DNA from: an uncultured Erysipelotrichaceae bacterium
GTDB lineage: Bacteria > Bacillota_I > Bacilli_A > Erysipelotrichales > Erysipelotrichaceae
Direction of reading: 5' to 3'
DNA: 32,619 nucleotides
Assembly (NCBI GenBank): GCA_937902945.1
Contig: CALEMD010000361.1
Location: 1-32,619, forward strand
Part shown: positions 3,845-26,593 of the stretch, one piece after another
Position numbering within the stretch: position 1 is the stretch's first letter
Layout of the letters: every line of letters starts with the position of its first letter
The notes under the pieces: generated by a model
Seen by the model: the letters and a program-made list of their open reading frames with translations, nothing else
What the model was told of the DNA's origin: nothing
Database searches by the model: none
Position numbers and translations under genes: made by a program

Positions 3845-6055
3845 ATGGACATCAGAATCGCCCTTGCGGGGAATCCAAACTGCGGGAAAACAACGCTCTT
3901 CAACAGCTTAACAGGATCAAGTCAGTATGTAGGCAACTGGCCGGGAGTAACAGTGGAAAAGAAAGAAGGCAGACTGAAAGGGCACAAGGATGTCATCATT
4001 CAGGATCTGCCGGGCATCTACTCACTGTCTCCTTATACGTTAGAAGAGGTCGTCACAAGAAAATATCTGGTAAATGAAAAACCGGATGCAATACTCAACA
4101 TCATTGATGGAACCAATATTGAGCGCAATCTATACCTGACTACACAGCTGATAGAATTGGGAATTCCTGTGGTTGTGGCAGTGAATATGATGGATGCTGT
4201 AGACAGAAGCGGAGACAGGATTGATCTTGTTAAGCTGGGCAGATCTTTAGGATGCGAGACAATAGGCATCAGTGCCCTGAAGAATGAAGGCAGCATGGAT
4301 GCCGCAGAGAAAGCAATTGCTGCAGCCCATGAGGGAATGATGGCAGAACTGCCGCATGTGTTTACGGGAAGTGTCGAACATGCTATAGCTCATATAGAAG
4401 AGTCAATTCAAAGAAGTGTACCGGAGAATTTTCTTCGCTGGTATGCGATCAAGCTGTTTGAACGAGATGAGAAGGTACAGGAAGAACTGCAGCTGGATGA
4501 TGCATTGAAAGCACATATTGGAAAACACATCGCTGATTGTGAAAAGGAAATGGATGATACTGCTGAGAGCATCATCACCAATCAGCGCTATGAATACATC
4601 AATCATGCAGTGCAGCATACCGTTGTTAAGAAGAATGTTAAGCACGGCATGACTGTATCCGATAGGATAGACAGTATTGTGACAAATCGGTTTCTGGCAC
4701 TTCCGATATTTGCCTTGGCAATGTTCCTTGTCTATTACATTTCTATTGGGACGGTTGGCGATTTTGTCACTGTATGGACCAATGATGTTCTGTTTGGAGA
4801 ATGGATTGTACCAGGCGTAACAGCAATGCTGGAAGGAATGAATGTCGCCGGCTGGCTGGTAAGTCTGATTGCGGATGGGATCATTGGCGGTGTAGGTGCA
4901 GTGCTTGGATTTGTGCCGCAGATGCTGATACTGTTTACTTTGCTGGCAATATTGGAAGATGTTGGATATATGGCTCGCATAGCATTTATTATGGATCGGA
5001 TTTTCAGAAAAGTCGGATTGTCTGGCAAGAGCTTCATCCCGATGCTGGTTTCTTCAGGATGCGGAGTTCCCGGTGTAATGGCCAGTCGGACAATTGAACA
5101 GGATCGTGATCGCAAGATGACGATTATGACAACCTGCTTTATACCCTGCGGCGCTAAGATGCCGATTGTAGGACTGATAGCCGGAGCACTGTTCAACGGC
5201 AGTGCGCTGGTATCGACATCTGCTTATTTCATTGGTGTATCAGCGGTAATCATTTCTGGAATCATGCTGAAGAAGACAAAGGCATTTGCTGGAGACCCGG
5301 CACCGTTTGTTATGGAACTGCCAGCATATCATATGCCGGTTGCAGCAAATATTCTGCGGGCAACGTGGGAAAGAGGATCCAGTTTTATTAAGCGCGCCGG
5401 CAGTGTGATCGTAGTGGCCTGTGTTGCTATATGGCTGCTGAATTCACTGACATTTACAGGTGGATTGCACTATATAGGTGATGGCAATGAGATGTCTATT
5501 CTGAATGCACTTGGCGAAGGAATTGCATTTATCTTTATTCCCCTTGGCTTTGGCAGATGGCAGGCAGCGGTGGCGACAATTCTTGGACTTGTGGCCAAAG
5601 AAGAAGTGGTTGGGGTATTCGGCTCGTTATCCAGCATGTTTGCGGCTGCAAATCCGGAGGCGGCAGTGGATCTTCTTGGTGCGATGGAAGGCAATGTCAG
5701 CAATCTGAATCTGATCGGACAGGAATTCTTTGGAGGCAGTGCATTGGCTGCATATTCATTCCTGATATTCAATTTATTATGTGCTCCATGCTTCGCAGCA
5801 ATGGGTGCTATAAAAAGAGAAATGAACAGCGCAAAATGGACATGGGCTGCAATTGGCTATATGAGCGGATTTGCATACGCAGTTTCACTCATTGTGTATC
5901 AATTGGGAATGCTGTTTACAGAGTCTGTCTTCACAATATGGACAGCAATAGCGATAGCTGTTCTTATGTTCCTTGTATATATGCTCTTCCGCAAGAACCC
6001 TTATGATGAGAATCATCTTCATATCAAAGCGATTGAGGCGGTGAAAGAAGTATGA
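3845..6055 (+). CDS. feoB: Ferrous iron transport protein B
   Basis: G1 GNPNCGKT, VGNWPGVTVE, DLPG, NMMD, multi-pass membrane domain with gate Cys motifs (GCGVP, PCGAK, PCFAA). Confidence 0.97.
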   Translation: MDIRIALAGNPNCGKTTLFNSLTGSSQYVGNWPGVTVEKKEGRLKGHKDVIIQDLPGIYSLSPYTLEEVVTRKYLVNEKPDAILNIIDGTNIERNLYLTTQLIELGIPVVVAVNMMDAVDRSGDRIDLVKLGRSLGCETIGISALKNEGSMDAAEKAIAAAHEGMMAELPHVFTGSVEHAIAHIEESIQRSVPENFLRWYAIKLFERDEKVQEELQLDDALKAHIGKHIADCEKEMDDTAESIITNQRYEYINHAVQHTVVKKNVKHGMTVSDRIDSIVTNRFLALPIFALAMFLVYYISIGTVGDFVTVWTNDVLFGEWIVPGVTAMLEGMNVAGWLVSLIADGIIGGVGAVLGFVPQMLILFTLLAILEDVGYMARIAFIMDRIFRKVGLSGKSFIPMLVSSGCGVPGVMASRTIEQDRDRKMTIMTTCFIPCGAKMPIVGLIAGALFNGSALVSTSAYFIGVSAVIISGIMLKKTKAFAGDPAPFVMELPAYHMPVAANILRATWERGSSFIKRAGSVIVVACVAIWLLNSLTFTGGLHYIGDGNEMSILNALGEGIAFIFIPLGFGRWQAAVATILGLVAKEEVVGVFGSLSSMFAAANPEAAVDLLGAMEGNVSNLNLIGQEFFGGSALAAYSFLIFNLLCAPCFAAMGAIKREMNSAKWTWAAIGYMSGFAYAVSLIVYQLGMLFTESVFTIWTAIAIAVLMFLVYMLFRKNPYDENHLHIKAIEAVKEV

Positions 6056-6530: not shown

Positions 6531-7502
6531 TCAGCGATATTTACTTGCCCCCTTTTTTAAAGTGTCTTTCAGTTCGTTCCTGAAATCCGCAGGCTCTAGG
6601 ATTTCCATGTGATCAAGATACTGCAGTGCAAAGAATTTCAAGCCTTGGCGTGATGCTTTGATGCGGGTGGTAAAATGTGCACTGTCAGCAGGTACGACAG
6701 GTATGTCTTTTCCGAATCTGTCTATCAGATCATCAAGTGTTTCTAGATCGCATTTCATTACAGCATTGACCATTTCGCCGCCATACATATATACCTTGTT
6801 CTTGGAATATACATAAGGATCTTCTTTCTTCAAAGGTTTTTTATAAGGTATGCCGTCAATGATATCAACGTCTTTGATTTTATCTATCCGGAAATGTGTC
6901 AGACCATCATGATGAATGCTTTTAGCTATCAAGTATGTTTTTCCATCGGCTGAAACCATGCTGTATGGACTGACAAGATAGGGCTCTGTTCTTTTCAGTA
7001 CAACTTTTTTCTTTAGATTGTATTGCGTATAGTGAAAGGAAATCACTTTTTCTTCCTGAATTGCCTGGGCAATGACTTCGATATTCAGAAAGAACTGTGA
7101 ATTATCTTTTTTGTTCAGATTGCTTATGTAAACTGTGTTGCGGAAATTCTGAATGCTGTAGCGGCTCTGTGTCTTCAGCAGTTTGTTTATAAGACGTTTA
7201 GAAGCATTGTTGGGGACATAGTTGGAAGCATGAATTGCATTGCATAGAAGCAGTACTTCTGATTCCTCAAACTGTCTTTCCTGCAGGAAGTATCCTTTTT
7301 TGTTTTCGGAGTATACAGAAATGTCATATCCGAAATCGATCAGCATGTTGATATTGCTGTAAAGAGTACGACGATCAAGATTCAATCCATAGCGTTCACT
7401 CAATAAGGTAATCATGTCATTCTGGGAAAGGATGTGTTCTGCATCACTGTCATTCTGAAGGATTTCCAGTGTTGCCAATATGCTTGTTTTTTTCTCTTCC
7501 AT
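6531..7502 (-). CDS. wHTH-WYL-WCX transcriptional regulator
   Basis: N-terminal HTH (LDRRTLYSNINMLIDFGYDI), WYL core (VSPYSMVSADGKTYLIA...HFRIDKI), C-terminal WCX-like region (EILEPADFRNE). Confidence 0.9.
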   Translation of the reverse strand: MEEKKTSILATLEILQNDSDAEHILSQNDMITLLSERYGLNLDRRTLYSNINMLIDFGYDISVYSENKKGYFLQERQFEESEVLLLCNAIHASNYVPNNASKRLINKLLKTQSRYSIQNFRNTVYISNLNKKDNSQFFLNIEVIAQAIQEEKVISFHYTQYNLKKKVVLKRTEPYLVSPYSMVSADGKTYLIAKSIHHDGLTHFRIDKIKDVDIIDGIPYKKPLKKEDPYVYSKNKVYMYGGEMVNAVMKCDLETLDDLIDRFGKDIPVVPADSAHFTTRIKASRQGLKFFALQYLDHMEILEPADFRNELKDTLKKGASKYR

Positions 7503-8058: not shown

Positions 8059-8286
8059 ATGAAACTAGTTGACTGCAGGGTACATCAGAAGGTAAAGGTT
8101 CTCGATATTGCCGGGGAAAAGGCTATACGGAAAAGACTGATCGATATGGGCATTACTACCGGTACAGTCATTTTTATTCGAAAAATGGCTCCTATGGGAG
8201 ATCCAATGGAGATCAATCTGCGCGGATATGAATTGAGTCTGAGAAAAGAAGAGGCAGAGAAGATAGAAGTGGAGCCCCTGAAATGA
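8059..8286 (+). CDS. feoA: Ferrous iron transport protein A
   Basis: RLIDMGIT...APMGDPMEINLRGYELSLR. Confidence 0.95.
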   Translation: MKLVDCRVHQKVKVLDIAGEKAIRKRLIDMGITTGTVIFIRKMAPMGDPMEINLRGYELSLRKEEAEKIEVEPLK

Positions 8287-10280
8287 AAAAACAGATCGTT
8301 GCATTGATAGGCAATCCGAACAGCGGCAAGACAACTCTGTTCAATCGTCTGACTGGAAGCAAGCAGCATGTCGGCAACTGGCCGGGCGTTACAATTGAGA
8401 AAAAAGAAGGCGTGTTTCAGTACCAGGAACACGAGATAACACTGGTAGATCTGCCAGGAATCTACAGCCTTTCTACATACAGCCTTGAAGAAGTTGTTTC
8501 TAGAGACTACATCATGCAGGAACATCCGGATCTGATTATTGATATTATTGATGGATCAAATCTGGAAAGAAATCTGTACCTTTGTCTGCAGCTGAAAGAA
8601 CTAGGCTTGCCGATGGTTGTGGCCATCAATATGCTGGATGAACTTGAATCAAAGGGAATCAGACTGGATATAGAAAAGCTGTCTAAGAAGATCAATACAC
8701 CGGTAGTAGCCATCTCAGCAAAGAATGGTGAAGGCGTGCAGAAGCTTGTGCATGATCTGATTCACAGTACGTTTGCGTCAACATATACATATGATGCAGA
8801 TACAGAAAACAGTCTTGCGGAAGTGCATGAACTGATTAAGGATTTGCCGCATGACGCAACACATGAGAAATTCTATGATTCAAAGCTTCTTGAAAACGAT
8901 GAACTGTTTGTCAGAGAGATGAAGCTTGATGATAAGCGCTCTGCAGAACTTGAATCTATTCAGAAGCGATTCTGTGAAAAGAAACATCAGACGGATATCG
9001 ACATGGCAGTGGCAGATACACGCTACAGCCATATAGATGCAATCATGAAGGAATGCGTAACCAATCCGCATAGATCTGACATCTCTGTGTCCGATAGAAT
9101 TGATATGCTTTTGACAAACAAATATCTTGGAATTCCGATGTTCTTTGTAATTCTCCTGATTATGTTCATGGTCACATTCGGCTCTTTTGGAACGTGGCTG
9201 CAGGAACTTGTGACAGGCGGAATCGGCACGCTGTCTGATTCTGTTCAGCATCTGATGACTGTTTCTGCAGTTCATCCGATTCTGATTGACCTTGTCAGTA
9301 CAGTGTTTACAGGTGTGGGCAGTGTTCTGTCTTTTATGCCGCAGATCATGCTGCTGTTTCTGTTTCTTTCAGTCATGGAAGATTCAGGGTATATGTCAAG
9401 AGCCGCATTCTTAATGGACAGCATGCTGCAGAAGATCGGCTTGAATGGGAAAGCATTCATTCCAATGCTGATGGGGTTTGGCTGTTCTGTGCCTGGCATC
9501 ATGGCATCCCGTGTGATGGAAAAGCCGGAAGATAGAAAGATGGCAATGATTCTGATTCCGTTCATGAGCTGCGGAGCAAGACTGCCGGTGTATGTCATGT
9601 TTGCGTCTGTGTTCTTCCCAGCACATAAGGGACTCGTTATATTCAGCATGTATATTCTGGGAATTGCTGTCGCAATACTCGCCGGACTTCTGCTGAAGAA
9701 TACAGCATTCAAAAACAGCGGTTCAACATTCATACTTGAACTGCCGCCATATCGTTTGCCTTCCTTTCGCAACACCATGGCACATATGTGGGAGAAGGCA
9801 AAGGGATTTCTCATCAAGGCTGGAACAACCATTCTTCTATGTACAGTTATTCTGTGGTTTGTGACAAGCTTCAGCTTCACACTGCAGTATGTAAGTGATG
9901 CATCACAGTCAATGATAGCAATTGCCGGTCAGTATATTTCGTGGATATTCATTCCGTTAGGATTTGGCACGTGGCAGGCATTTATTTCTCTAGTGTCAGG
10001 ATTCATTGCCAAAGAGAACATCATATCAACGATGGCAATTCTGTACTCATCCGGAAGCATTGCGGCTTTGCCGGCAGCCTTAGCTAAGGTATTTACACCG
10101 GTATCTGCAGTTGCGTTTATGAGCTTTACACTGCTGTACGTTCCGTGTGTTGCAACAGTCGCAACGATCCGCAAAGAAAGCAACTCGCCAATGTTTGCGT
10201 TTAAAACCATGCTGTTTCAGACAGGTGTTGCTTATATAACTGCATTGATTATCAGCGTGATTGGAAACCTTATATTCTAA
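8283..10280 (+). CDS. feoB: Ferrous iron transport protein B (second paralog)
   Basis: GNPNSGKT, VGNWPGVT, DLPG, NMLD, GCSVP, SCGARLP, PCVAT; ATGA overlap with feoA. Confidence 0.96.
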   Translation: MKKQIVALIGNPNSGKTTLFNRLTGSKQHVGNWPGVTIEKKEGVFQYQEHEITLVDLPGIYSLSTYSLEEVVSRDYIMQEHPDLIIDIIDGSNLERNLYLCLQLKELGLPMVVAINMLDELESKGIRLDIEKLSKKINTPVVAISAKNGEGVQKLVHDLIHSTFASTYTYDADTENSLAEVHELIKDLPHDATHEKFYDSKLLENDELFVREMKLDDKRSAELESIQKRFCEKKHQTDIDMAVADTRYSHIDAIMKECVTNPHRSDISVSDRIDMLLTNKYLGIPMFFVILLIMFMVTFGSFGTWLQELVTGGIGTLSDSVQHLMTVSAVHPILIDLVSTVFTGVGSVLSFMPQIMLLFLFLSVMEDSGYMSRAAFLMDSMLQKIGLNGKAFIPMLMGFGCSVPGIMASRVMEKPEDRKMAMILIPFMSCGARLPVYVMFASVFFPAHKGLVIFSMYILGIAVAILAGLLLKNTAFKNSGSTFILELPPYRLPSFRNTMAHMWEKAKGFLIKAGTTILLCTVILWFVTSFSFTLQYVSDASQSMIAIAGQYISWIFIPLGFGTWQAFISLVSGFIAKENIISTMAILYSSGSIAALPAALAKVFTPVSAVAFMSFTLLYVPCVATVATIRKESNSPMFAFKTMLFQTGVAYITALIISVIGNLIF

Positions 10281-16679: not shown

Positions 16680-16785
16680 TGGAGCCTAATTGTAATTTTG
16701 GTTCTGATTTAACAGTATTTCACTTAGATTCCAGAACTTTACTTCTTAGGGAAATCATTTTATTGTTAATGCATTGACCACAGAT

Positions 16786-18191
16786 ATGAAGATATATATA
16801 CAGCGAAGAGTTCTACTGAAAAAACTGATTGCAGCAACATTATCTGCCGCAATGCTGCTGATGACTGCAGCAACTTCTGTTTATGCAGAAGGAGAAGACT
16901 ATTCCGATGGGGATTACTGGAACAACTTATGCACTGGCGATGCAGTTATTTCAGCAGATCAGAAAACACAGTGTTCGGCTTACATTCAATACATCTCAAA
17001 TCAGTCTGCAGATCTTAAAACACAGCTGACGAAAATAGAAAGTCAAAGAGCTGAAATAGCCGATAATATTGCTGAGTATGCTGTTAAAATACAGGACTAT
17101 CAAGCTCAGGCTGATGAACTGAATGATGACATTGCGCTCTCAATGGAGAGATATCTGTTACAGAAGCACAGATTTCTAAGATACAGTCCAAGGTGGATGA
17201 GACACAGGCAGAAATTGATACTATTGAAAGTAAAATCAAAATAAGAATTGTCAATCAGCAATCCACAATGCGGACAAACTCTTATCTTGATATTCTTATG
17301 GGCGTAAGATCTTTCAATGATCTGATTCGTATTATCAATGGTTTAAGCGATATAACCAATTATGATCAGCAGACATCTATCACACTGTCGATACTGATTG
17401 ATCAGCTGAACAGCGATAAAACAGAACTGGAAACAGCAAAGGCTGAATTGGATGAAGATAAACAGACGATCGTTGATAAGCAGAACTCAATTCTGGCATT
17501 GAAGTATGAAGCAGAAGTCATTGAGCAGGAATTTCAGAAACAGGAATCCGATCTTGAAGCTGAGGGCAATAAAATTGCCGGTGACATAGAAGACATTCAG
17601 GCAAAAATGAAAGAAATCTCTTCTGCTATCAGTTCAATTGCGACTACAGCCGGCTGGACGTATCCTGTTCCTGGGGCTGTTATCAGTGCACATACCTGGT
17701 ACTACAACAGCGGAGGAATCCATATAGGCGAAGATTTTGCCGCAAAGCTTGGGAGCAATGTGTATGCGGCTGGCAACGGAGTTATTTTAAAAAGCACAGA
17801 TGGCTGTGAATATGGGTATCTTACAAACAAATGCGGATATCCAGGGGTTACAGGCGGAGGCAATCAGGTATATCTGCTTGCTAGCATCAATGGCGGTCTT
17901 TATGCAATCAAATATCTTCATCTGCTGAAAGGCACCACAATTGCACAGGGAACAGTTGTAAATGCTGGAGACATAATCGGCCAAGTTGGATCATCAGGGA
18001 ATTCCAGCGGTCCGCACTGCCATATTGAAGTTTATTATCTTGGAGATGACAGTGAGATGTCTACGTTTGCACAGAACTGGAATGGCGATATGACCTTTGG
18101 GTGTCAATATGGGCAGCCAGCATTGAATCATAAGTGCGAAGACAACTTCACAGCACCTTGCAGATTGCGTCCGGAAAGTGTATTTGGTTAG
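16786..18191 (+). pseudogene. Secreted coiled-coil + M23 peptidase (peptidoglycan hydrolase), split by a frameshift near 17135
   Basis: Signal peptide (..AATSVYA-EG); coiled coil continues in the -1 frame (DDIA/ALNGEISVTEAQISKIQSKVDETQ); M23 motifs HIGED, YLHL, GPHCHIE. Confidence 0.8.
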
Positions 18192-18196
18192 AAACT

Positions 18197-18251
18197 AGGG
18201 AATGTAAAGAAACCTAAAGAGCAGCAATCGGTTTCGATAGTTCCCTTTTTT
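18197..18251 (+). terminator. Probable intrinsic terminator
   Basis: Interrupted stem AGGGAA..GAAACC / GGTTTC..TTCCCT followed by a T-tract. Confidence 0.5.
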
Positions 18252-18323
18252 GATTTTAAAATAATGAACCAAAAGTGTTCTTTCAATATCTTTATACTGT
18301 AGAGAAAATGAGGTGTGGGACTC

Positions 18324-19949
18324 ATGAAAGATAAAGAGTTGAACATTGTTTTTACTGCGCAAAAACAGCAGGAAAATCTATTGCAGGAAACACTGCAGGC
18401 ATATAATAAGGCCGGAAATTTGATCTCAGAATATGTTTTTGAGCAAAAAACAATTCATTTAAAAGATCTGCATTACTATGTTCATACATTGAAGCAGGAA
18501 ACTGGATTGTCCCTGCAGATGCTGCACTCTGCTTCAGCTGAAGTTTTAGAAAAATACAATAAAGATGGTTTTGGCAGTAAAGCATATGCTTTTAATGCCA
18601 ACTCATTAAGTCTTGCAAAACAGGACTTCAATATACTGAAAAGCGGCAAGCTTTCAATAAGAACAGTCAAGGGCCGTGTCTATATTGATGGACAGTATCA
18701 GGCATATAAGGAAATACCTTATACAAATCTATATCTCTGGAATTCTTCGACAGCAGGGAAATCGAGTTTTACAATTTCTTCTAACGATAACAATAAATCG
18801 GCAGAGATTGAAGAGACTCCAAAAGTAAGAATTGTTTCTGTTCCTGCAAACAAAGTATCCGCTTATTCAGGTGCTCCTCATAAGAGAGTGGTCATGGCGG
18901 CAGCTGTTTTGGGAATAGTGATTGAACTTGTATCAATGACTGTCAATCACAGGTCAGATGATAGATTGTATGCTGAATCAATACAGGCATCTGATTCGCA
19001 GATTCAGGCTGTCAATCTGTCAGAACTGATGCTGAATGCAAACAATACAGATTCACAGGATGCGGCAAACCGGATTGAAGTTTTCTCAAGAGATAATGCT
19101 GAAGTGTCAGTAAAATTCATGAACTATCAAGACTTCAATGAAGCTGTTGTGTATGGATCAGAAGCAGAAGCTCCTGCAGATCCGACGATTGAAGGATATG
19201 ATTTTTCAGGCTGGTTTGCAGATGAATCATTGACACGTGAATATGACTTTAATTCTGCTGTGACAAAAGATATGACACTGTTTCCAAAATTCACGGAACA
19301 TGTGTATCAGCATTACGATCTCAGGGAACTGCCGACATATACGTTTGTGTCACAAGTCAGACCGACCGTTGTGCGTATGGGATGTGAATCGGCAGCTTTA
19401 TTGATGGCTCTGAAAACATCTGGACATGCATTGGGTGAATCATATGGTCAGTTCCTGTCAGAACTGCCTATGACATCCACAGATAACCCATATCTTGGTT
19501 TTGCCGGTATTCTATATGGAAATTCTGCTATGACGGATGCAGTTATGCCGAATGTCATTGCTGATTGGGCTCTAGACTATGGCAATGCCCGTGATATTTC
19601 GAAACAAGGTGAGCAGGTTCTGAAAGATGCATTGGCTGCGGGACATCCCGTTGTAGTCTGGACATCAATCCATTTCAGGTCTTCCTCTGCAATCTGGTAT
19701 GATTCTGCATTGCCAGATGATTATAAGGATCCTAAGACAGGCTATTCCGTTAATTGGAATGGCAGTACCGGATCAAATTGGGAGTACAAGACAAGCAATC
19801 ATGTAATGACTCTTCTTGGGTATGATGAGAAACAAGACAGCTGGCTTATCGGAGATCCTGCAGAATGGCTGGGTCCGACTTATTGGGTCAGCAATGATAT
19901 GTTTATGAATTCATGGAACTGCTATCAGGGGGCTGTAGAAGTCTGGTAG
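18324..19949 (+). CDS. Fusion protein: TnpB-like N-terminal lobe + TM + InlB B-repeat (Listeria-Bacteroides repeat) + C39-like cysteine peptidase
   Basis: TATACT 18293, GAGGTG RBS, ATG 18324; TM VVMAAAVLGIVIELVSMTV; B-repeat PTIEGYDFSGWF..YDF...VTKDMTLFPKF; peptidase Q..GCESAALLMAL, GHPVVVW, HVMTLLGYD, IGDP. Confidence 0.8.
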   Translation: MKDKELNIVFTAQKQQENLLQETLQAYNKAGNLISEYVFEQKTIHLKDLHYYVHTLKQETGLSLQMLHSASAEVLEKYNKDGFGSKAYAFNANSLSLAKQDFNILKSGKLSIRTVKGRVYIDGQYQAYKEIPYTNLYLWNSSTAGKSSFTISSNDNNKSAEIEETPKVRIVSVPANKVSAYSGAPHKRVVMAAAVLGIVIELVSMTVNHRSDDRLYAESIQASDSQIQAVNLSELMLNANNTDSQDAANRIEVFSRDNAEVSVKFMNYQDFNEAVVYGSEAEAPADPTIEGYDFSGWFADESLTREYDFNSAVTKDMTLFPKFTEHVYQHYDLRELPTYTFVSQVRPTVVRMGCESAALLMALKTSGHALGESYGQFLSELPMTSTDNPYLGFAGILYGNSAMTDAVMPNVIADWALDYGNARDISKQGEQVLKDALAAGHPVVVWTSIHFRSSSAIWYDSALPDDYKDPKTGYSVNWNGSTGSNWEYKTSNHVMTLLGYDEKQDSWLIGDPAEWLGPTYWVSNDMFMNSWNCYQGAVEVW

Positions 19950-19988: not shown

Positions 19989-20029
19989 GGGACCTGACTG
20001 TTTCAACTGCAGCCAGGTCCCGTTTTCTT
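19989..20029 (+). terminator. Intrinsic terminator between convergent genes
   Basis: GGGACCTGACTG...CAGCCAGGTCCC followed by GTTTTCTT. Confidence 0.7.
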
Positions 20030-20052: not shown

Positions 20053-23000
20053 TTACTTCTTTTTCATAAAATCTTTATAGAAGGCAAAGTTATCCTTGCC
20101 TTGCCGTTTGATGGAATACAGGGCAATATCCGCTCTTTTATAAAGAGACGCAAACGAATCTTTATGATCGGAGCCGATCGTGCATCCGATACTGCAATGC
20201 AGCATCTCTTCATTATGTTCGCCGATTGGACAGCTGGATACCTCCTGAATCAATGAAGCGAAGGAATCGTGTATTGCTTCACTTGCTTCAGAATAGGATA
20301 TCTCAGGCAGGAAGATAATGAATTCATCTCCGCCGGCTCTTCCGAGCAGATCACTCCTGCGGAAGTGCTTTTTCAGAACATGGGCAATAGAACGGATAGC
20401 CCGATCGCCTTGGGCATGTCCCATAGTATCATTGATGCGTTTCAGATTATCAAGATCAAGCAGAGCGAAGATACAGTCTTTTTCACTTGCTTCACTGAGT
20501 GCGGCACGGATCATATGCTCAATGGTACTGCGGTTGTACAGTCCGGTCATGCCATCATTCTCGGCGGCTTTCTGGACCTGCATATAGGCTTCTTTCTTCT
20601 GTGTGCAGTCGCTCAGTGTTACGAACATCTTGATATGCTTTGAATATGGATCTTCAACAAGCTGAATAACTGTATTTACCCATCGGATTTCCTTATGTTC
20701 TGTCAATGCAACAGGGAAATCCTGCTCTATTTCACGGCGGCCATCTGTATACAGAGTTAAGAGATGCTCACGGCTGAAGAAGTCGCGTACCATTTTGCGC
20801 TGCGGAGAGCGGATTGAATAATTAACCATCTTATTAAGAATTTCGGTATGCGTGGCATCGGAGGCAAACGAGAACCGTTTAGGCATCATATCACCGCCGT
20901 ATCTTTCAACAGAATCAGCACTTAAATCACTTTCGAAGTAGAGAATACTGCCCAGCTTGCTAGCGTTGATAGACTGCTGATAGCGGCTGTATACGACTTC
21001 TCTTTCATGCTGAGAAGAGATATCAAGCAAAGAGAATACAGTGCCGTACAGAGCGTGATTCTCCCCATTATCAAGAATAGAAGAGAACTGCATATCAAAC
21101 CATTTTTCTTTGTTCTCGTTATCGAGAATATGAAGTCTCATCTGACCGGATGGCGCATTCTTATCCATCTGTTCGAAGAAATTAAACAGTTCTTCACGGC
21201 AGTCATCATAGACAGTTCCGATTGCGACATTATCTGCATGAAGATTGGTATAGGAATCGCTCAATCCATTCTGAAAGCTCTTTTCACTGTCCAGGGATAC
21301 GGCAGAATGGGTTGAGGCATCATAAAAGTAAATAACACGGTTAGAGTGAGATGCGGCTAGGTTCAGTACTTTTCTGTCTCGGCTCAGCTGTTCAGTGAGC
21401 ATATGCTGTTCACTGCTGTCGAGGTAGATATGCACATATCCTATGCCTCGTTCAGGATCCTGAATCTGATAGGCGGTGTCAGAAAGCCATGTGCTCCGTT
21501 CTTCCTGATGATTGGATAATCAAGAGAATACTTCTTCGGTTGATGGACCATGACATCATTCAGCTTAGCTCTGACCCAATCTCTATCTTTCTCATTTACG
21601 AGAGAACCTGTTTCACTGCGTGTGATTTCCAGCAGTTCTTCGCTGGTGTAGCCAAGCGAAGCTGGCAGGTTGCCAACCATGTATGGTTCATTTTTCTGAT
21701 CCAGATAGGATACTGCGATTAACGCAGGTGCGGTCGCATCAATCAGGTTGCTGAAATACAGACGTTCCTTAAGCTGCTTTGCTGTTTTCTCAAGAGAATC
21801 TTTCAAAGCGGCTTCTTCATTCATCTGATCATCTACGGTACGGGAAAGAGAAATGACAAGCACATCTTCATCATACGGATTGTCAATATGCAGAAGAGTC
21901 GTTTCAACCCAATGCAGCTGATGCTTTTCATCATATTCTTGATAAACCAGTGTCTTGGCTGAATGGCTGTTTTTCCAGAACTGCATCAGAGCTTCTTTGT
22001 TCATGAAAGATAGGTAACGTTCATGCTGTTCTTCAGGAATAGCAGACAGAATCAATGAAACATGATTGTCAAACGATCCCTGCAATGGCTGGCATTGATT
22101 GATAAAGCCATTATTGCGAATCATGTATCCTGTTTCCTTAGTCAGGTTGATTCCCTGTACAAGAGGATAGATTGTAGAGAGAGCCTTCATCATGCTGCTG
22201 TTATGCATGACGTGTTCTTTTCTGTGGTTGAAGACTTCTGTGAAATCGTAATACGTGATAATAGCCCCTTCTGGTTTGGAAAAAGTATCATTGATGGCTG
22301 AGAAGGTGACACTGTACCAGCGTTTTCTTCCGCTCTTCTGACACATATGGATATTCGCATAGCCGTTCTTATAGCCGATATCTATCTGATGGAAGAACTG
22401 CCGCCATTCTGAGATGCTTTCCGGTTCAATTGATCCGTTTGCAATCATCGTCTCAGGCATGTTTTCACACCAGTATGGCATATTGAAATAAGCAGGATCA
22501 CTGCCGCCTTCAGCAACGTGATTCTGAATGTGATAGCGGTAATAGTTGACAGACTCATCAGACAGATAAGTGATTGTGTCCGCTTCACTGTCAGGCAGAT
22601 ACTGTTCAAGATGTTTTTGATTTGTATTATTGGAGTACAGACCAAAGTAGTAAAGTGTTCCATCATCCATAATAAAAGGATGCGCATTCAGGTTGATCCA
22701 GCAGATGATGCCGCTTTTAAGAAGAATTCTTGCATCAATGCTGAAATCAACACGTTCACTGATGCACTTAGACATAATCTTTTCAATGCCGCGGCGGTCA
22801 TCTGAATGCACTCTTGCAAGAAGATCGACCATTCTGTCTGGGACGGTTTCAGAATCAGAATAGCCAAGACACCTTCTAGCCCCGTACTTATGTATTCACG
22901 GATCATATCATTCTTTTCAATTCTGAAGGATGTGAATCCGACTGGTATATTGGATATGATGTTGTTTATATACTGCTGAGAGCGATATGCTTCACTGTTG

Positions 23001-26000
23001 TCTACAATATAGACAAGAACTGCGTTTCTTCCATTCCATTCGATTCTGCTGAAAATGGAACGATAGTGTTTTCCTTCAGAGATGAAATCATTGTATGCAT
23101 TGTCTTTGAAGTCTTCAGAAAGAAGAGGACATTGATCACAAGGCTTGTCATTGTGCATGATGAATTTATAACAGAGGCTGCCGCAGGCTTTCTGTGCAGG
23201 ATCAGTGGAGAACTTCTCACAGGCCGCATTGGCAAAAAGAATCTCATGTGTATCACTGTCGAGAACAGCAAATTTCTGATCGGTTTTGCGGAGTATGGAG
23301 TGATAAATATCATCTTCTGCAGAAAGACTGTAATAGACAGCTTTGAACAGCTGCTTGCCATCCTGACTATCAGATGCTTTTCCGTGCATAGCGATCCAAG
23401 CATATCCGCCATCTTTCTTCCTGATACGCACATTTTCTCTGACTACAGAAGAATTGCTTATTGATTCTTGGACGGTTTTCAGAAGCCGTTCATAATCAGT
23501 CGGCATAAACAGAGACTCTGTTTCATTCTTTGCATAAAATGCGTAGAGTTCCTGCCGCGTATATCCTGATAGAGAGGAAGAATCCTGCGAGAGATAGATC
23601 AGTTTCAATCTGTCCGGCAGTATTTCAAAGGAAGCAGTTCCGCCGGATACAGAATTCAGTATATTCTGCATTTCGTCTGTATTCTGCTTGAGTTTCTGCT
23701 CCATTTTTTTCTGATCATCAATATCTTCCAAAATGGCTGTTATATCTGTCTGTCCATCTGCTGTTTTTGAAGCGGCTCCAGTCATGGACATCCATTTCAA
23801 TTGTTTATTTTTACATTGAATTCTGAATGTACAGGAAATCTTTTTAGTACTCTTATCTAATGCAGCCAATACTCTGCTGCGGTCTTCATGCCAGACGAGT
23901 TCAGAAAAGTGTCTGCTGAATGCATGGCTGAACTCATATTCTGAATAGCCTAATGTCTGCATAAGGGATGGGCTGACATAGGAAAACAGATCTGTATTCA
24001 GAATGAAACGGATTGAATCACCAGGGATGGCACCATTGAGAGCACTCAGACTGTTTTTTAGAAGAACGGTTTCACTGACATCGGTTAGGGTCATATACAG
24101 ATAGATAGAGCCGTCAGTCTCTTTCTACAGGTTGATGATTGTTTTCAGCCAGAACCAGCTTCCGTCTTTTCTTTTGACATGCATAAATGGGATGCTGGAG
24201 GAAGAACTCTCCACAGAGGCATTCATTGCAGAATCACTTGCGGTAGGCATAAGTCCATAGGTCTGCCCATTTTTTACAGCTTGGAAGAATTCTTCCTTGC
24301 TGGCATTGAACAGCTTGCAGCAGGCATCGCTGACATACTGCAAAGAGATGCTTTGATCACTGTCCATCTTATAGACAGCAACGCCAGCAGGAACATTCAT
24401 GAAAATGCTTTTATATAGGCTGTCGCTTAAAGCGGCAGTTTTCTGCTTGGTGATATTTTCAATTGACAGGAACAGCAGATGACCTTCTGCCTTTTTTGAA
24501 AGGTAGCGCATTCTGCACGCCAGCCAGCTGTCTTCGCTGCCATCATTGAAAGGAAGTGTACGTATTTCGCAGTATGATTCTTCCTGAGTATCTATGGCTT
24601 TCTGCAGTGCATCCTGCATGATCGGCCTGCAGCGCGGAGTAATTCTCTGCATCATATCATACAGATATGGATCATAGGTTTCGCGGCTGACTCCTATTAT
24701 TTTAAAGAACATATCATTCAGCCGAAGACCGGATAGAGTATTCTTGGTATATTCAACAATTCCAGCACCGCCTATAAAAGTGTTGAACAGCAATGTGGAT
24801 TGAGGAGTCGCTTCAAGAAAATCAATTGTATCCATTTTCCCGATACGTTCTTTCAAGGCATCGGCATCTGACAGTTCTTTATCAGCAATAAAAGCAAGCA
24901 ATTCAGTCTCAGGCAGAGGCTTAGAAAAGTAATAGCCCTGCATCAGATAGCAGCCAATGCTCTTCAGGTATTCTGCTTCAAATTCTGTTTCTACACCTTC
25001 TGCGACAATCGGCAATCCGATATCATGAACCATTCGCACAACAGAACTGAGTATTTTTCCGCCTTTGTGATTCTCTGCTTTGGTGCCTGTATTGTCGTTG
25101 ATGAAATTCATATCCAGTTTTACAGAGTCTACAGGCATATTCTTCAAAGTGTTCAAAGAAGAATATCCGCTTCCGAAGTCGTCCATCTCAATTCGAAAAC
25201 CGGAGCTGCGCAGTTTTTGAATCACTTCTGACAGCTGTGAAGGATCATCCATATATGCAGATTCTGTAACTTCCAGATTGAGACAGGAAGGGTCTAGATT
25301 ATATTCCTTTATCAGATCGGACAGATACTCTTGGATATCCTGATGATAAAAGTCTTTGCGTGAAATGTTTACAGATATACTAGGTACATTCAGCCCTGCA
25401 TCTTTCCAGCGGCGTATTGCCTGACATACATTCTTCCAAACATATTTATCAAGTTCATAAATGAAGCCGCTCTTTTCAAACACAGGTATGAATACCCCTG
25501 GCGGAATAAGACTGCCAGAAGAGGTTTTCCAGCGCACAAGAGCTTCTGCTTTGACGATAGTATGGGAAGAATAGTTTACGATAGGCTGGTAGTAGATGAC
25601 ATATTCATGATTGTCCAGTGCCGGTTTCATAGCATTGATCAGTTCATGCTCATTGACAAGATCCTTGCGCATGCCTTCGTCATACCAGGCATAAGCGTGC
25701 TGATAGTTCTGCTTCAGTGACTGCAGAGCCATATCGGCTCTGTCACACATTAAACTGACATCTACAGAAGGATCATCGATTGCATAGAGTCCTATGCGTA
25801 CAGAAAAATCAAATTCAGGATCAATCTCATGAAGCAGATTATTGACAGTAGACAGCACTGTATCTGGATTGAACAGTGCTGCTTTTCTAAGAGAGACAAA
25901 GTGTTCAGCATCATATCTGCCAAAGATAACTAAGTCTTTGCTGTCGTCTGCGTTGTTCAAATAGAAAATACCGACTTTGCGCAGATATTCATCACCCGCT

Positions 26001-26593
26001 TTAACGCCGTTAATATCGTTGTACACTTTGAAATTATCAATATCCCAGCGCATCAGAATGAATTTTTCATCAGGATGCTCCTGCAGGTACTGTCTTGTAT
26101 AACGGACAAATGCGTTTCGTGTATACAAGCCTGATTTCTCATCTGTATCGGCAATTTTCAGTTCTCGGCGAACCTGGCGTATGCTTTCGAGTGTCCGAAG
26201 GTCAGAAGAACGTGTCAGAATACTGTCAGCCTTGCATTTCATAACTGCAAGATTGAGAGGTTTGACAAGAACATCGACAGCACCTTACTGCAAAGCCTGT
26301 ATTGTAACCGAGCTTTCAAGACTTGAAGTCATTGCCGCAAGCGGAATAGCCCGCAGTGTACTGTCTTGCTGCATCTGCTGCATAAGCGCAAAGCCACCGC
26401 TGTCAGGCAAAGCAAGATCTATGATAACAAGTGAAATATCATCATGATCATGCAGGATCTGAAGAGTATCCTTAATGTTTGCGGCATCATAAATGATGTA
26501 ATCATCCTGCAGATATTTGCGGATGCTCTGCCGATAATAAAGAGAGTCATCTGCTATCAAAATGGATTTCTTTTTTGTGCTTGATTCTGTCAT
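20053..26593 (-). pseudogene. Giant c-di-GMP enzyme REC-GGDEF(degenerate)-EAL-multiple PAS-GGDEF (~2180 codons), broken into five ORFs
   Basis: REC (ILIADDS, IIDLALP, KP), GRYDAEHF, EALVRW/DDFGSGYSSL/AEGVE/QGY, several PAS folds, RRSD-LLGRA-GGDEF. Lesions: TAA 26285-26287, TAG 24125-24127, frameshifts near 22869 and 21493. Confidence 0.85.

Follow-up and report, generated by a model that had tools for sequence, protein, structure and literature searches.

The proteins closest to the gene described here are the TnpBs of IS200/IS605 elements, the Cas12f proteins and TldR together with the exapted Sigma-, SpoIIE-, flagellin-, DppD- and RHH-TnpBs. According to the accessible parts of the respective reports, TldR and the exapted TnpBs are immobilised, nuclease-dead TnpB derivatives serving a host function, are encoded as separate genes, retain the RuvC fold at least in part and use a guide RNA where this was tested (10.1101/2023.11.30.569447, PMC10691335, 10.64898/2026.09.22.753285). 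Here, we describe a gene of an uncultured Erysipelotrichaceae bacterium (assembly GCA_937902945.1), located at 18324..19949 (+) of contig CALEMD010000361.1, of which the 32,619 nucleotides analysed are called the window in the following. It is an uninterrupted open reading frame (ORF) encoding 541 amino acids and containing the peptides quoted in a first-pass annotation made from the sequence alone. Residues 8–125 of its product constitute the WED/REC lobe of a TnpB of the IS200/IS605 type, placed in front of a membrane helix and a cysteine peptidase. As RuvC is absent, the protein is by membership neither a TnpB nor a TldR or Cas12f but a C39_2 peptidase whose front part derives from TnpB. 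We tentatively put first the reading that this front is a trapped, folded passenger, its core kept by the peptidase's dependence on the tnpB start and its DNA-reading surface drifted.

Compared to IS200/IS605 TnpB, to which the lobe model matches at Z 10.9–11.7 (ISDra2; 8H1J, 8EXA, 8BF8), the fusion was found to have no RuvC, zinc finger, tnpA or guide region, and a membrane helix and a peptidase have been added. The N-terminal domain of Cas12f is similarly close (AsCas12f1: 7WJU, 8J3R, 8DZJ; SpCas12f1: 9I8Y; dCas12f: 9N9C; Foldseek TMq 0.50–0.66 in the top ten). In the lobe the equivalents of AsCas12f1 H72 and K80 are kept and those of Y76, S88 and K96/R97 are lost; the fusion has no C-terminal lobe, and no CRISPR array or tracrRNA was seen, with no array-specific search made. 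Like TldR and the exapted TnpBs the fusion is an immobilised, nuclease-dead derivative. In contrast to TldR, it lacks the C-terminal lobe altogether, with RuvC absent rather than DED-mutated, and what is left of TnpB is fused and is predicted to be membrane-bound. Relative to the secreted or lipoprotein peptidases consisting of a B-repeat and Peptidase_C39_2, it carries 186 extra N-terminal residues. Finally, several short ESM Atlas clusters (PF27142 Aq_aa04, PF27234 MJ0013, PF27229 SSO2105_N and an unnamed viral one of 180 amino acids) reach feature scores of 0.94–0.96 with residues 1–155; they are lobe-sized (165–196 amino acids), not fused to a peptidase, and are candidate genes or split or truncated tnpBs. 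One such lobe-like cluster is wholly viral with 244 members, and clusters of this kind may be genuine stand-alone genes. The fusion protein is composed of the following parts:

18324..18698 (+): residues 1–125, TnpB-derived WED/REC lobe without RuvC, predicted to be cytoplasmic
18699..18881 (+): residues 126–186, putative degraded WED end and/or recruited linker, with low model confidence and a weak coding signal
18882..18944 (+): residues 187–207, single hydrophobic helix preceded by KR
19101..19298 (+): residues 260–325, Listeria-Bacteroides (B) repeat
19299..19949 (+): residues 326–541, C39-like (papain-fold) cysteine peptidase with Q344/C354/H493/D511 intact

Origin and extent of the TnpB-derived lobe

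The N-terminal 154 amino acids match TnpBs of 379–387 amino acids in related genomes, the closest of which (L091, from the Erysipelotrichales) shares 33% identity over residues 20–119 (E 5e-12). In 5 of 60 relatives, residues 10–122 match ORFs of some 387 codons that occur in several copies; all four loci opened encode TnpBs, PF01385 and PF07282 are present in all three of these TnpBs that were scanned, and a tnpA-like ORF adjoins TnpB at three of the four loci. In a protein search of 1.84 billion representatives (E cut-off 0.001), ten of the 13 matches are whole or fragmentary TnpBs, five of which Pfam confirms, two are broken alleles of the fusion gene itself and one is an unrelated repeat protein; no intact parent of the lobe above about 39% identity was found among these representatives. 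Moreover, a profile of 20 TnpB N-lobes matches residues 8–130 at 81 bits versus 11.7 bits for the best of 2000 shuffles, the profile being partly circular as its members were chosen by likeness to the query. The AlphaFold model of the lobe, which used TnpB rows and leans towards the TnpB fold, is confident for residues 11–120 and not for 126–162, and its ten best solved structures in Foldseek are Cas12f, dCas12f and ISDra2 TnpB (VIA Z up to 12.4). In a full-length model built without TnpB rows, residues 61–244 have a predicted local distance difference test score (pLDDT) below 50. The ESM Atlas' own model, built without our alignment, aligns to TnpB clusters over residues 1–154 with a template modelling score of 0.77–0.81. 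The TnpB-type REC/WED N-terminus proposed in the first-pass annotation is thus confirmed by the identity to L091, the 81-bit profile and the AlphaFold and Foldseek matches, and the models predict that the lobe stays folded.

The sequence likeness to TnpB is clear for residues 8–125 and fades at about 122–130, i.e., some 50 residues ahead of the expected RuvC-I. The earlier statement that it ends where RuvC-I should start is correct in that it ends before RuvC-I and places the end too late. Residues 136–215 match neither the last WED strands nor RuvC-I, with 240 of 1000 shuffles scoring equally. For the same comparison (-0.8 bits; 240/1000 shuffles as good), the helix was rejected as a decayed RuvC-I, as was a continuation of TnpB in another frame, there being no RuvC half in any frame of 18600–19300. 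The absence of RuvC, zinc finger and tnpA noted from the sequence is upheld: neither PF01385 nor PF07282 is found on the fusion protein, there is no tnpA-like ORF beside the gene, and a full-length profile of the lobe's TnpB clade, run against the six-frame genome (364 contigs, 91% complete), finds only the lobe itself, which is single-copy in the assembly. IS ends are not visible at the locus, no dedicated end model having been run. Furthermore, no omega RNA 3' of the gene reaches the Rfam gathering score, by which a diverged RNA would be missed, and the 3' (guide) region of the closest TnpB has no DNA match 3' of the fusion gene.

These searches bear on the idea that the lobe belongs to a split RNA-guided system, in which the RuvC half and the omega RNA would be encoded elsewhere and the complex would be tethered to the membrane. 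Stand-alone omega RNAs act in trans according to the accessible part of PMC10691335, and the incomplete assembly does hold one TnpB of another clade. However, the clade profile and the guide-region comparison returned nothing besides the lobe, and the guide of TldR binds across RuvC and WED, as far as the available portion of the report goes (10.64898/2026.09.22.753285), whereas here RuvC is missing and the WED end is degraded. RNA guidance of the lobe is therefore unlikely, and a split system as a whole appears very improbable.

Several TnpB loci came up in the course of these comparisons. The genome's own intact IS605 element (L052:1468–2990 (-)) comprises tnpA and a tnpB of 367 amino acids; it belongs to a different clade and was rejected as the parent of the lobe. 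The closest TnpB (L091:251–1590) has no tnpA in the 250 bases that separate it from the contig start; it is followed by an untranslated 3' stretch of about 190 bases that could hold its guide RNA. In another genome (G120), two near-identical tnpB copies (L123:1420–2397 and L133:1001–1978) share a frameshift after RuvC-I resulting in frames of 326 codons.

Reality, distribution and topology of the fusion

Single contigs span the join between lobe and helix in three of six DNA runs (X9, X12, X16). The 90% cluster of the fusion has seven members, six at 99–100% identity and one broken after residue 308, and six of the seven carry both the lobe and the whole peptidase. The fusion is real and in-frame and not an assembly artefact. 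A chimeric assembly or a chance resemblance to TnpB could be suspected from the 364 contigs and from the domain libraries: on residues 1–159 Pfam gives nothing significant, TnpB families included, and NCBIfam gives a weak match to TIGR01765 (transposase N-terminal) at residues 12–51 (E 0.006). Against the bridging contigs, the intact cluster members and the agreement of sequence, profile and structure on TnpB, this explanation is hardly credible. The stretch or part of it occurs in 19 of 23 listed metagenome runs from 11 studies of wastewater, sludge, compost, soil and bioreactors; no RNA run is listed among its holders, and two runs tentatively taken for RNA are probably DNA.

All occurrences of the fusion found belong to one species. 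Searches of 115 further genus genomes and 400 further family genomes gave no orthologue, and neither did an order-wide lobe profile in 400 other genomes. This profile (401 genomes) gave matches in 31 genomes, of which 12 lower-scoring translated ORFs are TnpBs or fragments, six short or unfetched matches being left out of the count. In 61 relatives, 401 genomes of the family and 116 of the genus, the lobe matched nothing but fragments or ORFs of TnpB size. When the lobe was compared to 90% clusters of 297–947 amino acids, the single hit among 289 candidates was the fusion's own cluster. Scans of genome and metagenome contigs with the protein or the lobe gave nothing, viral contigs gave one match of 30 residues to the query, the ESM Atlas search, in which TnpB families were skipped, gave no credible fused cluster, and PHROGs gave nothing for the lobe. 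In phages and plasmids tblastn matched the C-terminal part alone, among the matches listed (15 of 160 plasmid rows). The search of related genomes for the same fusion, proposed at first pass, thus gave no second case, and all 22 other peptidase relatives (338–396 amino acids, without the lobe) begin at a signal-like or lipoprotein peptide. The first-pass annotation had regarded a fusion confined to this assembly, orthologues starting near the helix and a neutrally evolving lobe as signs of a passive remnant; the one-species range and the starts of the relatives amount to half of this. Within the genus, recA matches reach 80% at best, i.e., no close sister species has been sampled, and the restriction to one species therefore does not date the fusion.

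The C-terminal half is by fold and catalytic residues an ordinary C39_2 peptidase, with activity predicted. Pfam assigns the B-repeat to residues 271–320 (E 1.6e-12) and Peptidase_C39_2 (PF13529) to residues 351–513 (E 6e-16; 59.7 bits versus a cut-off of 24). Q344, C354, H493 and D511 are invariant in all 23 peptidase homologues, and the model (pLDDT mostly >85) matches the C39-like structure 3ERV (Foldseek E 5e-9). The relatives (P0008–P0029), the named ones mostly Solobacterium and Erysipelotrichaceae records, share 37–59% identity over the C-terminal part and the same catalytic residues. A profile search for a longer peptidase-bearing form added none (20 hits among 7996 scored candidates), a lobe profile found no lobe at the peptidase-relative loci examined with it, and none of the ten window genes tested recurs next to any of 23 peptidase loci. 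At position 19797, two runs of depth 2–4 (X12, X13) carry N492Y at a nearly invariant position beside the catalytic His493.

One hydrophobic segment (residues 187–207; Kyte-Doolittle up to 2.4) forms a helix in the model. A signal-peptide profile made from the N-termini of the relatives fits it slightly better than RuvC-I does, weakly so, with 12 and 41 of 1000 shuffles. The helix is likely the ancestral signal peptide, which would now act as a signal-anchor. Since the helix is single, is preceded by KR and belongs to a peptidase with exported relatives, the lobe would lie inside and the peptidase outside, and by this analogy the product is likely a single-pass membrane protein with a cytoplasmic lobe. 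The single hydrophobic helix, B-repeat and C39-like peptidase that the first pass read after a linker are supported by the Pfam domains, the hydropathy of residues 187–207 and the catalytic residues.

Conservation of the lobe and its possible causes

Next to its origin, the state of preservation of the lobe has to be explained. It keeps 14 of 22 columns that are invariant in 11 reference TnpBs, found mostly via RuvC or a mixed profile, at 10% identity in the variable columns; of the same 22 columns, 12–18 are kept by five intact or long TnpBs that had been held out. When nine query-like TnpBs are used instead, 21 of 24 conserved columns are kept in the lobe. Simulated decay of four TnpBs without amino-acid constraint to the same distance left on average 5–6 of the 24 columns and at most 13 (300 runs each), the count of 21 and the comparison with the simulations both referring to this query-biased set. 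As conserved columns are kept beyond simulated decay, plain erosion of a sampled TnpB does not account for the lobe. The lobe forms the longest terminal branch of 18 rows (4.26 compared to a median of 0.6), with a placement that the tree does not resolve.

The residues that changed are different in kind. At column 54 the lobe has His, and 16 of 16 TnpBs have Tyr; at column 64 it has Leu in place of Ser or Ala (16/16); at columns 72/73 it has Ala-Glu, and all 16 TnpBs have Lys or Arg at one of the two. By profile alignment these columns map to Y76, S88 and K96/R97 of AsCas12f1, where Y76 and K96 make base contacts and S88 a backbone contact to the protospacer-adjacent motif, as described in the accessible part of 10.1101/2023.07.03.547593. 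Moreover, the lobe has the fewest lysine and arginine residues of 17 rows. This residue pattern argues against canonical binding of a target-adjacent motif (TAM), and the lobe has likely lost its DNA-reading role. The role as a membrane-tethered nucleic-acid binder or one-component signalling protein suggested at first pass is unsupported, with columns 54, 64 and 72/73 changed with respect to all 16 TnpBs.

The trapped passenger put first above would have arisen as follows. A tnpB element would have landed upstream of a peptidase gene, the RuvC half of tnpB would then have been deleted, and the peptidase would have become reliant on the start codon and ribosome-binding site (RBS) of tnpB, with its own signal peptide becoming an uncleaved anchor. 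Afterwards, the whole protein would be lost to mutations that unfold the lobe, whereas residues contacting DNA would be free to drift; a kept core with lost TAM contacts and lost positive charge would follow from such a dependence on a folded lobe. The working part would be the outward-facing cysteine peptidase, for which a peptide substrate in the cell envelope is a guess, and the lobe would mainly be leader and tether. This reading is supported by the kept and changed columns, the long branch and the lack of a close intact parent described above, by the best RBS lying at the lobe's ATG, by host-like codons 1–125 (33rd percentile), by the 22 relatives that lack the lobe and by the gene being open next to two broken neighbours. 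The signals around the gene are:

18197..18246 (+): stem-loop with T-run 3' of the upstream M23 gene, likely the M23 terminator (z -2.2; 7/200 shuffles fold equally well)
18293..18298 (+): putative -10-like hexamer TATACT, without a recognisable -35 and not called by a promoter scan
18310..18315 (+): Shine-Dalgarno GAGGTG before ATG 18324 (-9.4 kcal/mol versus -5.2 for the next best)
19989..20021 (+): GC-rich hairpin then GTTTTCTT, likely terminator of the fusion gene (z -3.2 for a 91-nt stretch)

The RBS of ATG 18324 is the strongest among the in-frame starts of the first 260 codons, and the likely M23 terminator would separate the fusion gene from the M23 gene. The claim that the gene has its own signals is therefore right for the RBS and the likely terminator hairpin and doubtful for the -10, given the missing -35 and the negative promoter scan.

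Several points weigh against the passenger reading. The mapping to Cas12f runs through a weak stretch of the profile (4.2 bits) and is approximate. H50 and K57, equivalent to AsCas12f1 H72 and K80, are kept, as are the family-invariant Q65 and R118, which makes some nucleic-acid contact by the lobe conceivable. The conservation could predate the fusion and stem from a stand-alone lobe gene or from TnpBs of a clade not yet sampled. The topology comes from hydropathy and analogy only, and E201 sits inside the helix. Finally, the lobe is broken in some strains: in run X9 a single base is missing at 18373 (codon 17), so that the frame ends after 32 residues, and loose ends at 18436 and 18450 as well as the tails of P0030 and P0031 mark insertion-like breaks inside the lobe. 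The frame is intact at its start in four of the five runs covering it, and a further break lies in the B-repeat (loose end at 19242 and P0005). These lesions show that the gene can be lost, without pointing to the lobe in particular. Sequence at contig ends of the genome studied here is matched by the tail of P0005, as a multi-copy element would be. An element with related end sequences breaks the fusion gene in several strains and is found at three contig ends of the genome (L075–L077); it has no match in plasmids or in 60 relatives.

The kept residues H50, K57, Q65, T114 and R118, together with the selected-looking conservation and the long branch, would also fit a true domestication, in which the lobe has its own selected intracellular job, either as a nucleic-acid binder of changed specificity or as a module for protein interaction or dimerisation. 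In the accessible part of the Cas12f report (10.1101/2023.07.03.547593), the proteins whose N-terminal domains are the closest folds dimerise through REC. In a variant of this reading the outside peptidase would be coupled to the cytoplasm by one-component signalling, perhaps with release through intramembrane cleavage. One-component regulators of the ToxR/CadC type consist of a cytoplasmic domain, one membrane helix and an outside domain, a layout that the predicted topology of the fusion resembles. However, the fusion occurs in one species in which broken alleles circulate, the three TAM-contact columns are changed and positive charge is low, and no associated regulon, repeat or RNA was seen, so that we regard domestication as unlikely.

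Alternatively, the fusion may be recent and passive, a tnpB remnant or stand-alone lobe gene having run into the peptidase via stop loss or deletion. All conservation would then predate the fusion, and the peptidase may still start internally. Codons 126–210 are weakly coding (3.6th percentile of in-frame pieces, in a region picked after inspection), a sigma70-like site lies at 18747–18775 within the linker, and an in-frame ATG (M191) at 18894, near the helix start, has a moderate RBS weaker than that at ATG 18324. The confinement to one 90% cluster of seven sequences, five of which are called from a TTG at codon 20, and the tolerated frameshift and insertions point the same way. On the other hand, no close parent was found in any search, the promoter-like count in the region is at chance (5 found versus 5.9 expected), a start at M191 would lose the KR ahead of the helix, and with recA at best 80% the one-species range is no sign of youth. 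We rate a passive fusion as unlikely, on a par with domestication. Selection before and after the fusion is inseparable, as there is no orthologue. The six DNA runs hold eight substitutions in the gene (one synonymous in the lobe; five non-synonymous and two synonymous elsewhere), and Q21H is found in two cluster members; with no orthologues and too few substitutions within the species, the ratio of non-synonymous to synonymous substitution rates is not computable.

Genomic surroundings and meaning of the fusion

The fusion gene is open while both neighbours carry breaks. The upstream M23 peptidase/coiled-coil gene (16774–18191 (+)) is frameshifted near 17137 compared to its paralogue on contig C222, and as runs covering the site show no indel, the break seems common to the strains seen. 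Among its M23 matches in relatives, the best ones opened represent a different copy, situated in an ftsX-M23-ctpA-like context. The downstream gene (20053–26593 (-); response regulator, GGDEF, EAL, PAS and GGDEF) is split into five consecutive ORFs and is probably a decaying pseudogene. That the fusion gene, in contrast to its neighbours, is free of lesions holds for this assembly and fails for other strains with their frameshift and insertions. Elsewhere in the window, two FeoB-like genes, assigned by reading the translation by eye, at 3845–6055 (+) and 8283–10280 (-) converge around a WYL-domain gene (6531–7502).

The exaptation proposed at first pass is partly supported. Its suggestion that the architecture may be undescribed stands so far: a literature search, with subscription papers largely outside it, turned up no account of a RuvC-less TnpB lobe fused to a membrane peptidase. 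The published census of TnpBs was filtered on RuvC-like domains, according to the accessible part of PMC10691335, and by such a filter derivatives consisting of the recognition lobe only are missed. The fusion presents a TnpB recognition lobe that survives, apparently folded, on a predicted membrane protein, the weight of this being limited by the occurrence in one species. If the lobe is a folded passenger only, it would cleanly illustrate how a transposon domain enters a host protein ahead of any function there. With a job of its own, it would show the TnpB scaffold to be reusable without RNA guidance, which would be a new route of domestication. The most far-reaching form of this idea, in which proteolysis or binding outside the cell is relayed to a domesticated cytoplasmic effector, i.e., a transposon-derived DNA-, RNA- or partner-binding domain, is distinctly unlikely; if true, RuvC-less TnpB halves would form a wider class unseen by RuvC-based censuses, with the fusion as its first member on a surface protein.

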